Source: a virus (taxonomy: Duplodnaviria; Heunggongvirae; Uroviricota; Caudoviricetes). Taken from it: a stretch of 38,159 nt of DNA. The translations under genes and the position numbers were made by a program. This document shows positions 2,863 to 36,512 of the stretch, one piece after another. Location of the stretch: positions 1 to 38,159 of IMG/VR virus record IMGVR_UViG_3300045988_123528; one strand, written 5' to 3'. How positions within the stretch are numbered: the stretch's first letter is position 1; every line of letters starts with the position of its first letter. The notes beneath the pieces are model-generated. The model did not search any database, was not told the origin of the DNA, and was given only the letters and a program-made list of their open reading frames with translations.

Positions 2863-3668
2863 TTCACCTCTTGTGATGGTTTTGCTGCAAAATACTCGAT
2901 ACCTTTATCCCAGATAGATTTTATGGTCGACCACGTGACTGGCACTTTAATTTCAATACGTCCGCTCCCGTCACAGGTATCGCAATCATCATCGCCAAAG
3001 CATTCCAGGCAGCTTATAAACGTAGTTTCTGAAAATTCACCGGATAGCGCCCCCTTAGCGCCGTTCTCGGCTGTTAGTCTCTTCGGCACCATAACCCAAC
3101 CATCCGGAGTTACCGGAGAGTTGCCAGACAGTGCGTTCTGCAATCGTTCCAGCTTAACGTATTCCTGAACCCTGTTTCCGTCGCACGCCTGAAGCCATTG
3201 CACAGCCTTTTGCGCATCAGTGTGAAAGGCACAAGTGCGACCGTCATCAAATTGCATTTCGTAGAGGTCAGCAACCTGTTTAAACTGCGTTTGTGGCAAC
3301 TTGTAAGCCTGGCTTGCAGGTACGGCACCATAGAGCATGGCAGCGCGGCAGGCGTTCCAGCCTTCATCAAAACCGACTATGCCATTATTTAAAGACGGAC
3401 GAGCATCTGGCACCACCGGCACTGGCTTGGCTATATATAGCGGCTGAACATACCAGCCCTTTGATAACCAACTGTCAGCAATGTTTTTACTCCTGGTTAT
3501 TGCCGGAATACCTAAGCCATTGTCTGAATGCAGCCATGCCACCGGATCCTCTTCCAGCGATGCCAGAGCAATTTCATAAGCACGGCGCTCAACATTGTCT
3601 CGCACGTCCATGCTGCTGATTCGTTCTTTGATTTCTTTAATCAGTTCTTTATCGGTAAATGTGGTCAT
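2859..3668 (-). CDS. Hypothetical phage protein with C-terminal CxxC-x5-CxxC zinc-ribbon motif
   Basis: 269 aa ORF in operon context; CLECFGDDDCDTC near C-terminus. Confidence 0.5.
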   Translation of the reverse strand: MTTFTDKELIKEIKERISSMDVRDNVERRAYEIALASLEEDPVAWLHSDNGLGIPAITRSKNIADSWLSKGWYVQPLYIAKPVPVVPDARPSLNNGIVGFDEGWNACRAAMLYGAVPASQAYKLPQTQFKQVADLYEMQFDDGRTCAFHTDAQKAVQWLQACDGNRVQEYVKLERLQNALSGNSPVTPDGWVMVPKRLTAENGAKGALSGEFSETTFISCLECFGDDDCDTCDGSGRIEIKVPVTWSTIKSIWDKGIEYFAAKPSQEVK

Positions 3669-9942: not shown

Positions 9943-10433
9943 TCATGAGTCTGTTAAATGACGTTCAGAAATTCATTGAAGCCCATCCGGGGTGTACTTC
10001 CGGAGACATTGCGGATGCTTTTGCAGGTTACTCACGGCAGCGCGTTCTGCAGTCAGCAAGCAAGTTACGTCAGAGTGGGCGTGTGGCTCACCGTTGTGAA
10101 GGAGATACACGCAGACATTTCCCACGCCTGACTGAGAGAGCGCAGGAGCCGGAACCACAACCAGTTCGTGAAACCAGACCTGTGCGCAATTTCTATGTCG
10201 GCACTAACGATCCCCGGGTGATTTTGTGCCTGACCCGCCAGGCGGAAGAACTGGAGTCCAGGGGCTTATACCGTCGTGCTGCAACGGTGTGGATGGCGGC
10301 ATTCCGTGAAAGCCACTCCCAGCCAGAACGAAACAATTTTCTGGCGCGTCGTGAGCAGTGTTTACGGAAAAGCAGCAAGCGCGCTGTATCGGGTGATGAG
10401 TGGTATCTGTCAGGGAATTACGTGGGGGCTTAA
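9939..10433 (+). CDS. PerC-like (Pch-like) regulator
   Basis: ELESRGLYRRAATVWMAAF recalled as the PerC-family signature; family call unverified. Confidence 0.4.
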   Translation: MIMSLLNDVQKFIEAHPGCTSGDIADAFAGYSRQRVLQSASKLRQSGRVAHRCEGDTRRHFPRLTERAQEPEPQPVRETRPVRNFYVGTNDPRVILCLTRQAEELESRGLYRRAATVWMAAFRESHSQPERNNFLARREQCLRKSSKRAVSGDEWYLSGNYVGA

Positions 10434-11086
10434 TGAGTAATAAATATTGCCAGGAGTTGGTGGAACTGCGGAACAAACCAGCCCATGAACTGAAGGAAGT
10501 GGGTGATCAGTGGCGCACGCCGGACAACATTTTCTGGGGAATTAACACCCTGTTTGGCCCGTTTGTTCTGGATCTGTTCACTGACGGTGATAACGCCAAA
10601 TGTGCTGCGTATTACACGGCGGAAGACAACGCGCTGGCGCATGACTGGTCAGAACGTCTTGCGGAGCTTAAAGGGGCTGCCTTTGGTAATCCCCCATACA
10701 GCCGCGCCAGTCAGCATGAGGGGCAATACATCACCGGCATGCGTTACATCATGAAACATGCCAGTGCCATGCGTGATAAGGGTGGGCGCTATGTTTTCCT
10801 GATCAAAGCTGCCACCAGCGAAGTGTGGTGGCCGGAAGATGCGGACCATATTGCTTTTATTCGCGGGCGTATTGGTTTTGAACTGCCTGCCTGGTTTATC
10901 CCGAAGGATGAGAAGCAGGTGCCGACAGGCGCTTTCTTCGCTGGTGCTATTGCTGTTTTCGACAAGACCTGGAAGGGACCGGCAATTAGCTACATCGGGC
11001 GCGATGAACTTGAGGCATGTGGTGAGGCGTTTCTGGCGCAGGTTCGCCAGCAGGCGGAAAAACTGGTCAGGGAGATGGCGGCATGA
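10433..11086 (+). CDS. Phage DNA N6-adenine methyltransferase (orphan, Dam-like)
   Basis: WRTPDNIF...DLFTDGDN...AFGNPPYS motifs; start ATG overlaps upstream stop. Confidence 0.75.
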   Translation: MSNKYCQELVELRNKPAHELKEVGDQWRTPDNIFWGINTLFGPFVLDLFTDGDNAKCAAYYTAEDNALAHDWSERLAELKGAAFGNPPYSRASQHEGQYITGMRYIMKHASAMRDKGGRYVFLIKAATSEVWWPEDADHIAFIRGRIGFELPAWFIPKDEKQVPTGAFFAGAIAVFDKTWKGPAISYIGRDELEACGEAFLAQVRQQAEKLVREMAA

Positions 11087-13634: not shown

Positions 13635-14387
13635 ATGAACCTTGAAGCCTTACCAAAATATTACTCCCCAAAATCTCCAAAATTGAGCGATGACGCACCG
13701 GCGACAGGCTCAGGTGGTTTAACGATTACGGATGTGATGGCTGCGCAGGGGATGGTGCAGTCGAAAGCACCGCTTGGGTTTGCCTTATTCCTGGCAAAAG
13801 TTGGTGTTCAGGATCCTCAATTTGCGATTGAAGGTCTGCTCAATTACGCGATGGCACTGGATAACCCGACATTGAACAAATTGAGTGAAGAAACCCGGTT
13901 ACAGATCATCCCTTACCTTGTGAATTTTGCCTTTGCTGATTATTCCAGGTCTGCGGCAAGTAAGGCTCGCTGTGAGCATTGTGCTGGTACTGGATTTCAT
14001 AATGTATTGCGCGAAGTGGTGAAACACTCCAGAAGCGGGGAATCTGTTATCAAGGAAGAGTGGGTGAAGGAACTATGTCAGCATTGTCATGGTAAGGGAG
14101 AAGTCAGCACAGCGTGCAGAGGGTGTAAGGGTAAAGGTATTGTCCTGGATGAAAAAAGGACCCGGCTTCATGGCACGCCTGTTTATAAGATTTGTGGGCG
14201 TTGCAATGGAAATCGGTTTAGCCGTTTACCAACCACACTGGCGCGGCATCATGTCCAGAAGCTGGTACCAGACCTGACGGATTATCAGTGGTACAAAGGA
14301 TATGCAGATGTCATTGATAAACTGGTGACAAAGTGCTGGCAGGAAGAAGCATATGCTGAGGCGCAATTAAGAAAAGTGACGAGATAA
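13635..14387 (+). CDS. Late antitermination protein Q (QuuQ-like)
   Basis: 250 aa, Cys-rich zinc-finger motifs; sits immediately upstream of a PR'/tR' unit and the lysis genes. Confidence 0.7.
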   Translation: MNLEALPKYYSPKSPKLSDDAPATGSGGLTITDVMAAQGMVQSKAPLGFALFLAKVGVQDPQFAIEGLLNYAMALDNPTLNKLSEETRLQIIPYLVNFAFADYSRSAASKARCEHCAGTGFHNVLREVVKHSRSGESVIKEEWVKELCQHCHGKGEVSTACRGCKGKGIVLDEKRTRLHGTPVYKICGRCNGNRFSRLPTTLARHHVQKLVPDLTDYQWYKGYADVIDKLVTKCWQEEAYAEAQLRKVTR

Positions 14388-14418
14388 ATGATTTTCGCCG
14401 AAGATGGCGACATGATTC

Positions 14419-14447
14419 TTGCATTTTTCAAAAAATTTGGTTAGGAT
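14419..14447 (+). promoter_or_regulatory. Candidate late promoter PR'
   Basis: TTGCAT-17 bp-TAGGAT, about 60 nt upstream of a terminator (qut/short-transcript arrangement). Confidence 0.45.
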
Positions 14448-14493
14448 TCTCCTAACGATGGGCTTTGTGTGTCTACCGTTGATAATCTTCAAG

Positions 14494-14517
14494 AAACCGC
14501 CACCGAGCGGTTTTTTA
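14494..14517 (+). terminator. tR'-like intrinsic terminator
   Basis: AACCGC CACCGA GCGGTT hairpin plus TTTTTT. Confidence 0.65.
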
Positions 14518-14675
14518 TTGATGTCAATTGTGTTTTTAAGGCTCTCCTTCCTTAAAGTGTGTTGTACAAAAAACTGGCAGCCAGCTACGCTCATTTTGAA
14601 AAAGTGACACCCTTCAATGTTTCTTTTGAATGGAATTGCTACCCATAAATCTCTATCAAAAACAGGAGAGCATAT

Positions 14676-14918
14676 ATGGTGGATCGTTGTTCTGTTTGTG
14701 AGCAGTCATTAAGTTATTCACGAGAAGTTGAACAAGATGGCGTTGAATATAAATCTTGCCCAAAATGTTCTGCTGATGCCGGAGTGCACGTTTTTTATAA
14801 AACAATAGACTTTGGTTATAGGGATATGGGAGACGGAAGGCATATCGTTCAGTCATGGTGTCCGGCTTGTCGTTCTGGTGAAAAACCTTCTATACCACCA
14901 GCATTTAAATGTTGTTAA
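14676..14918 (+). CDS. Small Cys-rich (CxxC x3) zinc-ribbon protein, moron between Q and lysis genes
   Basis: 80 aa; CSVC, CPKC, CPAC motifs; SD AGGAG; own terminator downstream. Confidence 0.5.
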   Translation: MVDRCSVCEQSLSYSREVEQDGVEYKSCPKCSADAGVHVFYKTIDFGYRDMGDGRHIVQSWCPACRSGEKPSIPPAFKCC

Positions 14919-14937
14919 CTCAATGAATTATAAAAAG

Positions 14938-14963
14938 AGGCTGCCTGTGGGCGGCCTTTTTTG
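14938..14963 (+). terminator. Intrinsic terminator after the Cys-rich ORF
   Basis: GGCTGCC TGTG GGCGGCC hairpin plus TTTTTT. Confidence 0.55.
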
Positions 14964-15049
14964 TGCACTACGCAACTTTTGCGACTCAGCGCTATAACCA
15001 GCTTCTTTCCCTTCACTCGTTGCACTTCCGATAACCGGAGGTGGGAATT

Positions 15050-15391
15050 ATGAAAATGCATAACGATCCTCATTCCTGGTCTGACTTACTTGAATTGTTA
15101 CAGAGCTGGTGGCGTGGAGACACACCGCTGGGCGCAGTAATTATGTCGATCGTTATGGCTGGCTTGCGCATTGCCTATTTTGGCGGTGGTGGTGGCTGGA
15201 AGCGAAAAACGCTCGAGATTTTGCTCTGCGGCGCTCTGACGCTGACTTTTGCATCCGCTCTTGAGTATGTCGGATGGCCTAAATCGCTTTCTGTTGCCAT
15301 TGGTGGTGGTGTTGGGTTGATCGGTGTCGATGCTATTCGTGGGGCTGCAATGAGAGTAATCGGTAACAAGTTCGGTGGCTCTAAGGAGTAA
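15050..15391 (+). CDS. Class I holin with lambda-S-like dual-start motif (MKM)
   Basis: Three predicted TM segments; Met-Lys-Met start; SD GGAGG 7 nt upstream. Confidence 0.7.
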   Translation: MKMHNDPHSWSDLLELLQSWWRGDTPLGAVIMSIVMAGLRIAYFGGGGGWKRKTLEILLCGALTLTFASALEYVGWPKSLSVAIGGGVGLIGVDAIRGAAMRVIGNKFGGSKE

Positions 15392-16698: not shown

Positions 16699-17049
16699 AT
16701 GCCGCCACGAATCCCGAAAGCCTGCCGTGCTCGAGGTTGCCGTAATACCACCACTGACCCGTCAGGCTATTGCGAAAGCCACAAAAGCGAAGGCTGGAAG
16801 CAATACAAACCTGGACAATCCCGTCATCAGCGCGGCTACGGTTCGAAGTGGGACAGTATCCGCGCGCGTGTCCTGAAGCGTGACAAAGGCCTGTGTCAGT
16901 TATGTCTGCGTTCTGGTGTGGTGCGTGAGGCGAAAACTGTTGACCACATCATCCCTAAAGCGCATGGCGGCACTGATGCTGACAGTAATCTGCAGAGTCT
17001 GTGCTGGCCGTGTCATAAGGCGAAGACGGCCCGTGAACGGTTAAAGTGA
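16699..17049 (+). CDS. HNH endonuclease (terminase-associated)
   Basis: Cys-rich HNH motifs (CQLC...DHIIPKAHGG...CWPCH); directly upstream of the terminase genes. Confidence 0.8.
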   Translation: MPPRIPKACRARGCRNTTTDPSGYCESHKSEGWKQYKPGQSRHQRGYGSKWDSIRARVLKRDKGLCQLCLRSGVVREAKTVDHIIPKAHGGTDADSNLQSLCWPCHKAKTARERLK

Positions 17050-28724: not shown

Positions 28725-28784
28725 TGAAAAATTAATCTGTTAATGAGTCCCACTCCGGTGGGATTTTTTATGTACGGAGTTTAT

Positions 28785-30113
28785 ATGACGTGGAAAGACA
28801 GACTTCAGGACGCGTCATTTCGAGGTGTGCCGTTTAAGGTTGAAGAAGAAAGTGCGGGAACCGGCCGTCGTGTGGAAACACACGAATATCCGAACCGCGA
28901 CAAACCCTATACCGAAGATCTGGGAAAAGTCACTTTCCGCCCGTCCATCACAGCTTATGTGGTGGGAGATGACTGCTTTGACCAGCGCGATCGCCTGATT
29001 GAAGCGCTGAATAAACCCGGTCCCGGCACGCTTGTCCATCCGACTTACGGTGAGCTGAAAGTCTGTGTTGACGGGGAAGTTCGGGTCAGCACATCGAAAA
29101 GTGAAGGACGTATTGTCCGCTTTGACCTGAAGTTTGTCGAAGCGGGAGAACTCTCTTACCCCACATCAGGTGCGGCGACGGCGCAGACGCTGATGTCATC
29201 CTGTTCTGCACTGGATGACTGCATCAGTGACAGTTTCAGTGGTTTCAGTATCGATGGCGTGGCAGATTTTGTGCAGAACGACGTCGTCGGTAATGCCGGC
29301 ACAATGCTTGGGTATATTTCTGATGCGATGAAAGTGGTGGATTCTGCCGTATCGGATGCCGCCAGGCTGTTGCAGGGGGATATCTCGGTACTTCTGCCGC
29401 CGCCATCGTCAGGCAAAAATTTCGTTGAGCTGGTGCAGAAAATGTGGCGTACCGGGAAACGCCTTTATGGTAACGCCAGCGACCTGGTCACCATGATCAA
29501 AACGCTTTCCGGTGTCAGCCTCGGCAGCGATCTGCAACCGCGCGGCGTCTGGAAAACGGACAGTAAAACCACCGCCACGGCGACGCAGCAGCGTAACGTG
29601 GTTGCCAGCACCCTTCGTACGACCGCAATCAGCGAAGCGGCGTATGCCGTCACCCGATTGCCTGCGCCAACAACTTCCGCGGTGATGCAGAATGCCGCAG
29701 TGGGGCAGGCAACAACACCCGCGCAGAGCACTGGCTGGCCTTCCGTCACGCATCCGGCACTGAACAATGCACCGGCGGTGAAAAACACGGTTGACCTGCC
29801 GACGTGGGAAGAACTGACTGACATTCGCGACACACTGAATACGGCAATTGATAAGGAGTTGTCCCGTACAACCAGCGATGCGCTGTTTCTGGCGCTGCGC
29901 CGGGTGAAAGCAGATCTGAATGCGGATATCAACACGCGCCTTGAACAGTCTGCACGGATCATTCAGCGCACACCGGATGAAGTTTTACCCGCGCTGGTGC
30001 TGGCGGCGACCTGGTTTGATAACGCGGCGCGTGACGCGGACATTATCCGGCGTAATGCCATTACGCATCCCGGCTTTGTGCCGGTGATCCCTCTGAAGGT
30101 GCCAGTGCAATGA
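28785..30113 (+). CDS. Mu N-like DNA circularisation protein
   Basis: WKDRLQDASFRGVPF...GRRVETHEYPNRDKPYTEDLG N-terminal signature; start at ATG with SD GGAG. Confidence 0.7.
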   Translation: MTWKDRLQDASFRGVPFKVEEESAGTGRRVETHEYPNRDKPYTEDLGKVTFRPSITAYVVGDDCFDQRDRLIEALNKPGPGTLVHPTYGELKVCVDGEVRVSTSKSEGRIVRFDLKFVEAGELSYPTSGAATAQTLMSSCSALDDCISDSFSGFSIDGVADFVQNDVVGNAGTMLGYISDAMKVVDSAVSDAARLLQGDISVLLPPPSSGKNFVELVQKMWRTGKRLYGNASDLVTMIKTLSGVSLGSDLQPRGVWKTDSKTTATATQQRNVVASTLRTTAISEAAYAVTRLPAPTTSAVMQNAAVGQATTPAQSTGWPSVTHPALNNAPAVKNTVDLPTWEELTDIRDTLNTAIDKELSRTTSDALFLALRRVKADLNADINTRLEQSARIIQRTPDEVLPALVLAATWFDNAARDADIIRRNAITHPGFVPVIPLKVPVQ

Positions 30114-35091: not shown

Positions 35092-35118
35092 AAACGCCCC
35101 TTATGGGGCGTATTTTGC
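35092..35118. terminator. Bidirectional terminator between tail genes and the acyltransferase
   Basis: ACGCCCC TTAT GGGGCGT hairpin plus T-run; overlaps the acyltransferase stop. Confidence 0.7.
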
Positions 35119-36270
35119 TGCTTGCACGTTATTCTTTGGAAGAATTTTATTTGATAAATAATTGGAAAATTTTATCGCGTTATCATCAATTAGCAATTTA
35201 AAAATTAAAGCTGCAAGTATTGAAGATAATAAAGTGATTGGGAAAGTAATAAGTAAAGACTTTCCGTATGAAACTCCTGCATCACCAAGCTTAATTACGA
35301 TCAAAGAAGATATTGAAGCTATTAATGGAAAATGCACCAGATAAAGAGAGTATGATACATCTCCAAGAAATTTACAGGTTTTTGTTTTGAATAAATTTGA
35401 GATAACTATTGATTTATCAATTGCTATAATAAGAAACATTGAACCAAAGGCTTGAGAAACAATTCTCAAATCAAAGTAAGTTATGTCACTGTTATTTATC
35501 CAGATACTATGTTCAGTTATAAAATATGGGTATGAACCTAGGTAACATCCTAGTAAAATAAACATAAAGATAATTGTGGTATTAATTTTCTTTATATTAA
35601 CTGAAACATCTGCACAAATCACCCCTAATATAAATCCTATTAGATGACTTGAGCTAAATACCACAATACCTAAAGTATAAAAAGCAAACCTAATTCTGGT
35701 AGTGCAAACTAGTGGGACCAGAACGAGTACAAGAATTGAGCCAACCAATTCGGTGTGAATGGTCCATAATACTGGGTTTAATGTTTGAACTCCGTAAAAA
35801 TATGTACCAATACCCCCTTCCCATACCGCATTCAGTAATGTCATTGTAGTTGGCATCGCTGGGATTACTTGTGATAAAGAGTACACTGCAGTTTCTGATG
35901 AATGAAATCCAATCGTTGTCATCAGAATAAAGGAAAATATAGTAGATGCAATGGTAGGTATTGCAAGACGTGGGTATCTCTTGATAATGGATTTAGAGTA
36001 CCATTCTAGCCCCTTCCCTTTGAAAAAGGGAATCGATAGAACCATTCCACTCAAAACGAAGAAAAGCATTACGGCAAAGTGACCATTATATAATATATTA
36101 AATGGAGTTTCACTTATGTATTTCTCTCCATAATGATCTATCTGATTTTGAACAAAAACAGATGGTAGAAAGAATTGCATGAAATGGCTTATTAAAACTA
36201 TCAAGCAAGCTATACCACGAATACCATCCAGTGCGTGATCTCGGGAAGGCGTCGTTAATTGTTGAACCAT
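35101..36270 (-). CDS. Acyltransferase family 3 integral membrane protein (OafA/Oac-like)
   Basis: LDGIRGIACLIVLISHF N-terminal motif and many TM segments; AT-rich relative to the rest of the prophage; SD GAGGA before this ATG. Confidence 0.8.
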   Translation of the reverse strand: MVQQLTTPSRDHALDGIRGIACLIVLISHFMQFFLPSVFVQNQIDHYGEKYISETPFNILYNGHFAVMLFFVLSGMVLSIPFFKGKGLEWYSKSIIKRYPRLAIPTIASTIFSFILMTTIGFHSSETAVYSLSQVIPAMPTTMTLLNAVWEGGIGTYFYGVQTLNPVLWTIHTELVGSILVLVLVPLVCTTRIRFAFYTLGIVVFSSSHLIGFILGVICADVSVNIKKINTTIIFMFILLGCYLGSYPYFITEHSIWINNSDITYFDLRIVSQAFGSMFLIIAIDKSIVISNLFKTKTCKFLGDVSYSLYLVHFPLIASISSLIVIKLGDAGVSYGKSLLITFPITLLSSILAALIFKLLIDDNAIKFSNYLSNKILPKNNVQAAKYAP

Positions 36271-36512
36271 CAATTCCTCACACATTGTAATAAAGTATTA
36301 AAATAAAATAGTAAAAGCAGAATATACAAATACGAAAAGCGGAATTATACTTTACAAGAGTGCTTGATGCTATTGTTTTGTCGAGATTTATAATCTGATC
36401 TTCTGTAGATGTTGTCCTGGCATTGTCCAATCATGATCTATGGGCTGGCTGGCGAACTTTCGATAGTGCGAGTATTGAATGATTTCCAGCCGTTACCGAT
36501 TTTACGTGTTAA

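Follow-up and report, generated by a model that had tools for sequence, protein, structure and literature searches.

The window, by which we mean the whole stretch of 38,159 nucleotides analyzed here, is a prophage of about 37 kb at dusA that combines lambdoid early and late control with an HK97-type head and a contractile tail. Between its gene for the antiterminator Q and its holin gene, which is followed by the genes for lysozyme, Rz, and Rz1, lies a small gene for an 80-residue cysteine-rich protein (Table 1). A first-pass annotation had placed this gene between Q and the lysis cassette, in a position used for accessory cargo, and both parts of that description hold. The module of Q and the putative late promoter PR' is present in 2471 of 5426 complete E. 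coli genomes, whereas the segment 14481-14970, which carries the cassette, is present in 24, and only 3 of 80 closely related prophages have the gene. Thus, the cassette is rare cargo in a slot of variable content, which is filled by other ORFs in the phages 118970_sal3 and SKA5.

Table 1. Features of the cargo slot and the methyltransferase gene upstream of it (positions are those of the window)
Feature	Position	Strand	Details
Dam-family N6-adenine DNA methyltransferase gene	10433-11086	+	PF05869, E 9.7e-46; RefSeq annotation
Q antiterminator gene, YdfT/QuuQ type, 250 aa	13635-14387	+	PF03589, E 9.5e-54; phrog_127, E 6e-109; RefSeq "antitermination protein"
Putative late promoter PR' and qut-like start	14419-14462	+	TTGCAT (14419-24), 17 nt, TAGGAT (14442-47), tctcct, AACGATGGG (14454-62)
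tR'-like terminator	14494-14519	+	AAACCGC-CACCGA-GCGGTTT, T-run; −12.7 kcal/mol, z = −4.2, 0/200 shuffles
Cassette leader	14520-14663	+	last ~130 nt accompany the ORF in a second prophage background
Shine–Dalgarno sequence	14664-14669	+	AGGAGA, 6-7 nt 5' of the zinc-gene ATG
Gene for the protein with two putative zinc sites	14676-14918	+	ATG start, 80 aa; phrog_7682; WP_089438607.1 (RefSeq: hypothetical protein)
Cassette intrinsic terminator	14932-14965	+	A-run, 9-bp GC-rich stem, TGTG loop, T-run
Lambda-family holin gene, first lysis gene	15050-15391	+	PF05106, E 4.7e-28; phrog_126

Several other genes of the prophage were noted in passing. The Q protein also has DnaJ-type CXXCXGXG zinc repeats (PF00684, E 3e-7, residues 148-193). 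At the left end, adjoining the dusA fragment, a gene for a protein with a Panacea (SocA-like antitoxin) domain (720-1292; PF13274, E 2e-19) overlaps a downstream ORF of 139 aa (1289-1708) that has no Pfam match, and the two may be a toxin–antitoxin pair. An acyltransferase-family gene on the minus strand (35101-36285), located between the tail-fibre genes and the integrase gene, is by analogy with Shigella serotype-converting phages likely an O-antigen-modifying conversion gene. An HNH endonuclease gene (16699-17049; PF01844, E 1e-16) stands directly 5' of the P27-family small terminase gene, a pairing that is usual in cos-type HK97-like phages. The DNA circularization protein is encoded by one intact 456-aa ORF (about 28743-30113); in the prophage of E. 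coli MINF_9A, which is about 0.4 kb longer than the window, the same gene is annotated as two pseudogene pieces (L105 29785-31523).

The 80 codons of the zinc gene encode MVDRCSVCEQSLSYSREVEQDGVEYKSCPKCSADAGVHVFYKTIDFGYRDMGDGRHIVQSWCPACRSGEKPSIPPAFKCC. The three CxxC motifs (C5xxC8, C28xxC31, and C62xxC65) and the terminal cysteine pair (C79-C80) described earlier are all present, although in the family only C79 of the terminal pair is conserved (106 of 150 listed sequences) and C80 is not. The Shine–Dalgarno sequence that had been assigned to the gene is likewise confirmed, and AGGAG or GGAG is retained 6-9 nt 5' of the ATG across nearly all homologous loci. An identical protein is encoded in five complete E. 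coli genomes (WP_089438607.1). The protein matches the phrog_7682 HMM over its full length (residues 1-80 on positions 1-80 of 80, E 2.5e-59) and is a member of that family with no difference; since phrog_7682 carries no functional annotation, the name explains nothing. A protein search yielded 20 homologue clusters at 55-97% identity, with members of 78-80 aa except for one 55-aa fragment (P0019), and the CxxC cysteines are invariant or nearly so. Scans of genomes and viral contigs located about 100 zinc-gene loci in hosts that include Escherichia, Enterobacter, Citrobacter, Kosakonia, Atlantibacter, Yersinia, Proteus, Xenorhabdus, Photorhabdus, and Sodalis, among others. Intact ORFs of 78-82 aa that keep the ligands and the Shine–Dalgarno sequence are found across genera at identities down to 50%. 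The median pairwise dN/dS is 0.18, with no value above 1 among 418 usable pairs. The ORF encodes a real protein and is under purifying selection, and on the point of conservation, on which the first-pass annotation had made its reading depend, the result is favorable.

A locus for a non-coding RNA, or an ORF that arose by chance in a non-coding spacer, would agree with the short length of the gene, with its annotation as hypothetical only, and with its going unannotated in three complete E. coli genomes. Against this stand the low dN/dS, the intact ORFs across genera, the conserved ligands and Shine–Dalgarno sequence, and the phrog_7682 match, and the conservation pattern refutes such a reading, which we give practically no chance. 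An Rfam scan of 14200-15200 (E≤1) returned only sub-threshold sRNA matches (best E 0.12), and a tRNA scan of the window returned none.

Known families gave few leads. No Pfam, NCBIfam, or PADLOC model matched the zinc protein at threshold, no PDB family was found for it, and the PADLOC defence models gave 0 families at E≤0.01. Literature searches on DpnII with zinc ribbons, on DUF3553, and on DUF6997 turned up nothing about the family. A tblastn search with three family members against 50,697 deposited phage genomes gave no match; the family is to date known from prophages, uncultivated viral contigs, and bacterial genomes only. In a word-indexed protein search, one relative bore the UniRef label "RNHCP domain", which was set aside as lacking Pfam support, and the other names were "hypothetical protein".

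Remote homology and structure prediction had been recommended as routes to the nature of the protein, and both were followed. An exhaustive profile search identified 277 cluster representatives at E≤1e-3 (57 at E≤1e-10). Judged by these profiles, the protein belongs to a broad, widespread, and so far undescribed zinc-domain family. About two thirds of the 150 listed representatives are free-standing proteins of ≤110 aa. The family signature is L-x2-S ... K-S-C-P-x-C-S ... G-x-H-[VI]-[FY] ... F-G-x-R ... Q-S-[WYH]-C-x2-C-R ... C, and the window protein carries both ligand sites and every signature residue. C28, C31, C62, and C65 are each present in 144-149 of the 150 listed sequences; all eight ligands occur together in 97 sequences and the core four alone in 31. 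As ligand presence sorts cleanly by co-occurrence, we assign two putative sites, a universal Cys4 site (C28/C31/C62/C65) and an optional Cys3His site (C5/C8/H38/C79) that is gained or lost as one unit. The classical ribbon pairing of C5/C8 with C28/C31 was dropped because co-occurrence pairs C28/C31 with C62/C65. Each site has four conserved Cys/His ligands at knuckle spacing, and the protein is predicted to bind zinc.

AlphaFold2, run with a 21-sequence alignment, produced a confident model of a small α/β protein (pLDDT 83.4, pTM 0.70). Comparison with solved structures and with viral predicted structures revealed nothing similar, and a profile search of PDB sequences gave generic zinc-knuckle matches only (E≥0.068). 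The net charge of the family domain has a median of +3, the prophage clade is neutral to acidic, and the window protein has a net charge of −1. One Bacteroides contig (L037) encodes two family members, of 86 aa (875-1135) and 72 aa (3408-3626); the short member adjoins two methylases and lies opposite an HTH regulator and a PD-(D/E)XK nuclease pair.

The putative late promoter downstream of Q has the same layout as lambda PR' and its pause-inducing start region, in which TTGACT, 17 nt, TAAATT, and tgactc lead to AACGATGGG at the start site. Salmonella phage 118970_sal3 carries this segment, with 96% conservation, after the same Q, and we infer that the segment acts as a promoter. As in the lambda PR'-6S RNA-tR' region, an early terminator follows. 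118970_sal3 has a terminator of other sequence at the same distance from PR' and then an unrelated 85-aa ORF, a layout from which the hairpin in the window is best read as tR', with the zinc gene beyond it. The stretch 14547-14675, which includes most of the cassette leader, recurs with 92% identity 5' of the E. coli E7476 homologue, where it stands behind different genes.

A scan for sigma-70-like promoters on the plus strand of 14300-15100 found none, and hand inspection gave at best 7/12 promoter matches; a consensus scan of this kind could miss a weak or activator-dependent promoter. The first-pass annotation had called the gene a self-contained moron. The first of these terms is not supported, as the plus strand of 14300-15100 showed no promoter and the gene lies downstream of PR' and tR'. 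The second is only partly right: the gene has its own terminator, is patchily distributed, and is inserted, but no promoter of its own was found and it appears to borrow the late promoter. Because it lies past PR' and tR' and its leader has no promoter-like site, the zinc gene is predicted to be Q-dependent in this phage and to be the first late gene. Transcription would start at PR', and without Q most transcripts would stop at the tR' hairpin. With Q, transcription would read through tR', the zinc gene, and its terminator into the genes for holin, lysozyme, and Rz, and the 80-aa zinc protein would be the first late product.

The terminator ascribed to the gene is confirmed by its fold, by its recurrence, and by compensatory changes in its stem. 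The hairpin, GAGGCTGCC-TGTG-GGCGGCCTT, spans 14937-14958 with the T-run extending to 14962, and with its flanks has a folding energy of −19.6 kcal/mol (z = −4.4; 0/200 shuffles as stable). An intrinsic terminator follows the zinc ORF in 44 of 54 distinct related loci, nearly always 6-21 nt past the stop codon; the control value in random windows from the same loci is 11%. Among 17 hairpins of the same shape, the stem is 99.3% paired, with 18 compensatory cells at three stem positions, while none of 500 shuffles was as good and slid controls were at most 62% paired. These hairpins were chosen from fold predictions, which favours pairing, and the double changes are therefore the informative part. 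The unit of Shine–Dalgarno sequence, ORF, and terminator is a conserved cassette that moves among enterobacterial prophages. It is always co-oriented with the late genes and located just 5' of the lysis cassette.

The arrangement is different in the loci with a short QuuD-type Q, which number at least 28 of the 54 distinct loci. Here, antisense cargo often stands directly after Q and is followed by a conserved element, GCGTACGC-A5-CTATCGTAAnCTGTTAAGAGT, 100-135 nt 5' of the zinc gene. The same element is elsewhere the last conserved non-coding block 5' of the late genes, in SfII, in Stx1a and Stx2a phages, and in 358 E. coli genomes. Its palindrome varies yet stays palindromic (GCGTACGC changes to GCGGTCCGC or GCGGACCGC), as expected of a protein-binding site. 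On the basis of position and layout, the element is probably the late promoter together with the qut, or Q-binding, region of the QuuD-type Q family. The element was mapped to 3838-3871 in L066, with equivalents in L003, L075, and L079-L100, and it also occurs in L103 (2516-2555), L248 (2201-2249), and L249 (1501-1555).

A strong terminator, AAACCCGC...GCGGGTTTTTT, lies about 12-30 nt past the element in Shigella phage SfII, in a Stx2a phage, and in one E. coli prophage. In 27 of the 28 QuuD-type loci, the stretch that separates the element from the zinc gene has no credible terminator (best hairpin no stronger than −7.2 kcal/mol); the exception, L012, has a hairpin of −8.7 kcal/mol in the leader. 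If the element is indeed the late promoter, the cassette terminator would occupy the usual position of tR', and the promoter-proximal transcript, which needs no Q, would have the zinc gene as its coding part. In these relatives, then, the usual tR' would be missing, the cassette terminator would be the first after the promoter element, and the zinc protein would also be made constitutively from PR'. In E. coli E7476, the cassette and its leader follow a further, different upstream module, and here too no terminator intervenes.

One other prophage (L104 2732-3094) has an unrelated 108-aa ORF with its own terminator in the same promoter-proximal slot. The recurrence of this format with an unrelated ORF suggests that ORF-plus-terminator cassettes after the late promoter may be a general format for cargo. 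Unrelated 85-aa ORFs were also seen in the slot at L101 (2640-2897) and L102 (2639-2896). The antisense cargo between Q and the element, all on the minus strand, covers 2184-3795 in L003, 1732-3830 in L004, 2222-3748 in L075, and 2324-3710 in L092. In L004 it comprises genes for a RelA_SpoT-domain protein and an NA37-like protein; most of the antisense genes have no Pfam match, and they are candidate defence genes. A further observation concerns GATC, which occurs at −69 to −73 (about 70 nt 5' of the ATG) in 22 of 28 leaders, including otherwise diverged ones; L066, L003, L080, L090, and L095 are among them. The window leader has no GATC, and the sole one nearby is at 14682, inside codons 3-4. 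The leader GATC could be a Dam-sensitive site or a chance inheritance.

For the protein, to which the first-pass annotation could assign no function, the neighbors of the homologues now point to DNA adenine methylation and restriction. Outside Enterobacterales, 12 of 16 loci have a gene for a D12 (Dam-family) methylase adjoining the zinc gene, in or beside a Type II restriction–modification (R-M) operon, and these operons usually add a second methylase, N6_N4. The partner nuclease is of the DpnII kind (PF04556, E 6e-112), of the DUF6996/6997/7226 kind (PADLOC REase_II, 2e-127), or of the HNH kind, the last of which bears the zinc domain at its own N terminus. In Vibrio nigripulchritudo, the zinc gene stands beside dam and an N6_N4 methylase gene in the aroK-aroB-damX-dam-rpe locus. 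In a phage-like contig, a gene for a form with one site shares 4 nt with the 5' end of an MT-A70 methylase gene. Prophages of Proteus, Xenorhabdus, and Sodalis have an MT-A70 or N6_N4 methylase gene 57-138 nt upstream of the zinc gene, and loci of the Kosakonia type have an N6_N4 methylase gene about 240 nt downstream.

Fusion partners among the 150 listed representatives are the Tudor-like domain DUF3553 (9 cases), HNH (7-8 cases), DndB/DGQHR, and NOV_C; the DGQHR fusion sits behind a nuclease–methylase pair in the same operon. DUF3553 resembles the RNA-polymerase-binding Tudor domain of PcrA/UvrD (PMC6511836). The methylases that recur as partners belong to three adenine-methylase classes, and the nucleases are of varied kinds. 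In general, methylase genes are frequent occupants of this prophage slot, and the link between the homologues and adenine methylases, R-M operons, or nuclease fusions is a strong association, not proof. The window copy has Q and holin as its neighbors; without the adjoining methylase or nuclease that accompanies many homologues, it is filed as a relative of R-M proteins and not as a demonstrated component. The phage Dam, encoded 3.6 kb upstream, might be its functional partner. Dam occurs in 60 of the 80 related prophages with or without the zinc gene, so a correlation between the two is uninformative.

The explanation that we tentatively prefer is that the protein is a nucleic-acid-binding zinc module, made late under Q, that works with adenine methylation or restriction. 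Because genes for restriction enzymes and DNA adenine methylases adjoin those of its relatives, DNA is its probable target in R-M conflicts. Nucleic-acid binding is suggested by the fusion partners and by the positive charge of the family, and it is DNA binding that the neutral to acidic prophage clade and the lack of an adjacent methylase in the window count against. The domain would bind nucleic acid, with DNA as the most likely kind, and would have N6-adenine DNA methyltransferases and restriction nucleases as its working partners. In an R-M conflict, the free copy made by the phage would act either on DNA, whether of the phage or of the host, or on the methylases or nucleases themselves; it might assist or adjust a methylase by which progeny DNA is protected, or it might hinder a nuclease. 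A more specific version, possible but rather doubtful, makes the protein a dedicated partner of N6-adenine methyltransferases and, in many lambdoid prophages, the coding content of the constitutive transcript from PR' to the first terminator. Q would then act at the zinc gene's own terminator, and the counterpart of lambda 6S RNA would be an mRNA expressed in lysogens as well as late in infection.

Other explanations were weighed against the preferred one. The gene may be an autonomous moron, transcribed in the repressed prophage from a weak promoter in the 155-nt leader, whose product benefits the lysogen (by superinfection exclusion, defence, or host regulation, for example) and whose terminator shields the lysis genes. 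A conserved terminator directly 5' of the lysis genes is what an insert expressed in the lysogen needs, the slot is a hot spot for cargo that in relatives includes the antisense RelA_SpoT and NA37-like genes, the cassette is rare, and the QuuD-type relatives would express the gene in lysogens anyway, from PR'. The promoter scan and the hand inspection nevertheless revealed no convincing start site, the gene invariably runs in the direction of the late operon, in contrast to the adjoining antisense cargo, and no PADLOC defence model matches it; we regard this explanation as unlikely. Equally improbable in our estimate is an anti-restriction or anti-defence factor, in which a late free copy of a nuclease N-terminal domain blocks host restriction, for instance through competition for the same DNA sites or partners or through inhibition of the Type IV enzymes directed against adenine-methylated DNA. 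The domain does make up the N-terminal part both of a NOV_C nuclease-like protein and of HNH nucleases that two methylases flank, its expression is predicted to be late, alongside that of the phage Dam, and the loss of the wider family's positive charge in the prophage clade could mean a changed role. An inhibitor is, however, less expected inside bacterial R-M operons and beside chromosomal dam, where the same free-standing protein is found. At a net charge of −1, the protein is also insufficiently acidic for a DNA mimic of the Ocr or ArdA kind, and it has no Pfam or PHROG similarity to known anti-restriction proteins.

Less probable still is a role in regulating gene expression as a small zinc finger, in the manner of Mu Com, P2 Ogr, or TraR. 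By binding RNA polymerase or an mRNA, the protein would adjust late transcription, the timing of lysis, or the translation of a methylase. The place of the gene at the head of the late transcript, the relation of DUF3553, the commonest fusion partner, to an RNA-polymerase-binding domain, and translational coupling to methylase genes at some loci are consistent with such a role. But the Pfam models for Com, Ogr/Delta, and DksA/TraR gave no match at E≤1, and the zinc gene may be upstream of, downstream of, or convergent with the methylase gene, a variable order that fits poorly with a fixed cis-acting translational activator.

Small zinc proteins in phage cargo slots usually stay annotated as "hypothetical", and these results provide a testable context for this one. 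The domain recurs with three adenine methyltransferase classes and at least three unrelated nuclease families. This recurrence raises the possibility that the domain is an overlooked accessory part of common R-M systems, those of the DpnII type among them. The comparison of loci also indicates that the interval from a lambdoid late promoter to the first terminator can hold a protein gene. Such an arrangement would give a prophage a simple means to express cargo constitutively without a new promoter, with transcription still able to pass on into the lysis genes under Q.

Among known systems, the generic zinc ribbons (Zn_ribbon_TFIIB, PF13453; FmdB CxxC_CxxC_SSSS, TIGR02605) resemble the protein in having CxxC knuckles on β-hairpins, and they match residues 4-39 weakly (E 0.017 for PF13453 and 7.8e-4 for TIGR02605). 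The scores remain below the curated cut-offs (14.9 vs 22 bits for PF13453 and 19.5 vs 31.3 bits for TIGR02605; for PF09723, 12.9 vs 34.4 bits), the ribbon models would pair C28/C31 with C5/C8, and the family has motifs of its own (KSCPxCS, FGxR, and QS[WY]CxxCR). The term zinc ribbon used in the first-pass annotation is apt in a descriptive sense, but none of the curated zinc-ribbon models scores high enough to clear its threshold. Mu Com, a 62-aa Cys4 zinc finger, activates translation of the DNA-modification gene mom. The zinc protein resembles it as a small phage protein with a predicted zinc site, predicted late expression, and a genetic tie to DNA modification; the window protein differs in having two putative metal sites, a variable gene order relative to the methylase, and no Pfam match to Com at E≤1. 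Like the controller (C) proteins and accessory subunits of Type II R-M systems, the family members are small and encoded within R-M operons. C proteins, however, are helix–turn–helix proteins encoded ahead of the nuclease gene, whereas the zinc domain is often encoded by the last gene of the operon and is also found fused to nucleases and with orphan methylases. Zinc-containing HNH restriction enzymes such as Hpy99I (PDB ID: 3fc3) are another nearby known system.

Morons, as known from HK97 and HK022, are extra genes with their own promoter and terminator that are absent from close relatives. The zinc gene is likewise an extra, patchily distributed gene with its own terminator between genes that are neighbors in relatives, but it apparently borrows the late promoter. 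In lambda, the interval from PR' to tR' is regarded as non-coding, with an unproven orf-64 annotated there. In the window, unlike in lambda, a conserved protein gene and a second terminator come after tR', and the QuuD-type relatives, again unlike lambda, hold the zinc gene inside the interval from the putative promoter to the first terminator. The system as such is of no new kind; what is undescribed is the domain, which has a clear, testable context and an unusual placement relative to PR' and tR'.
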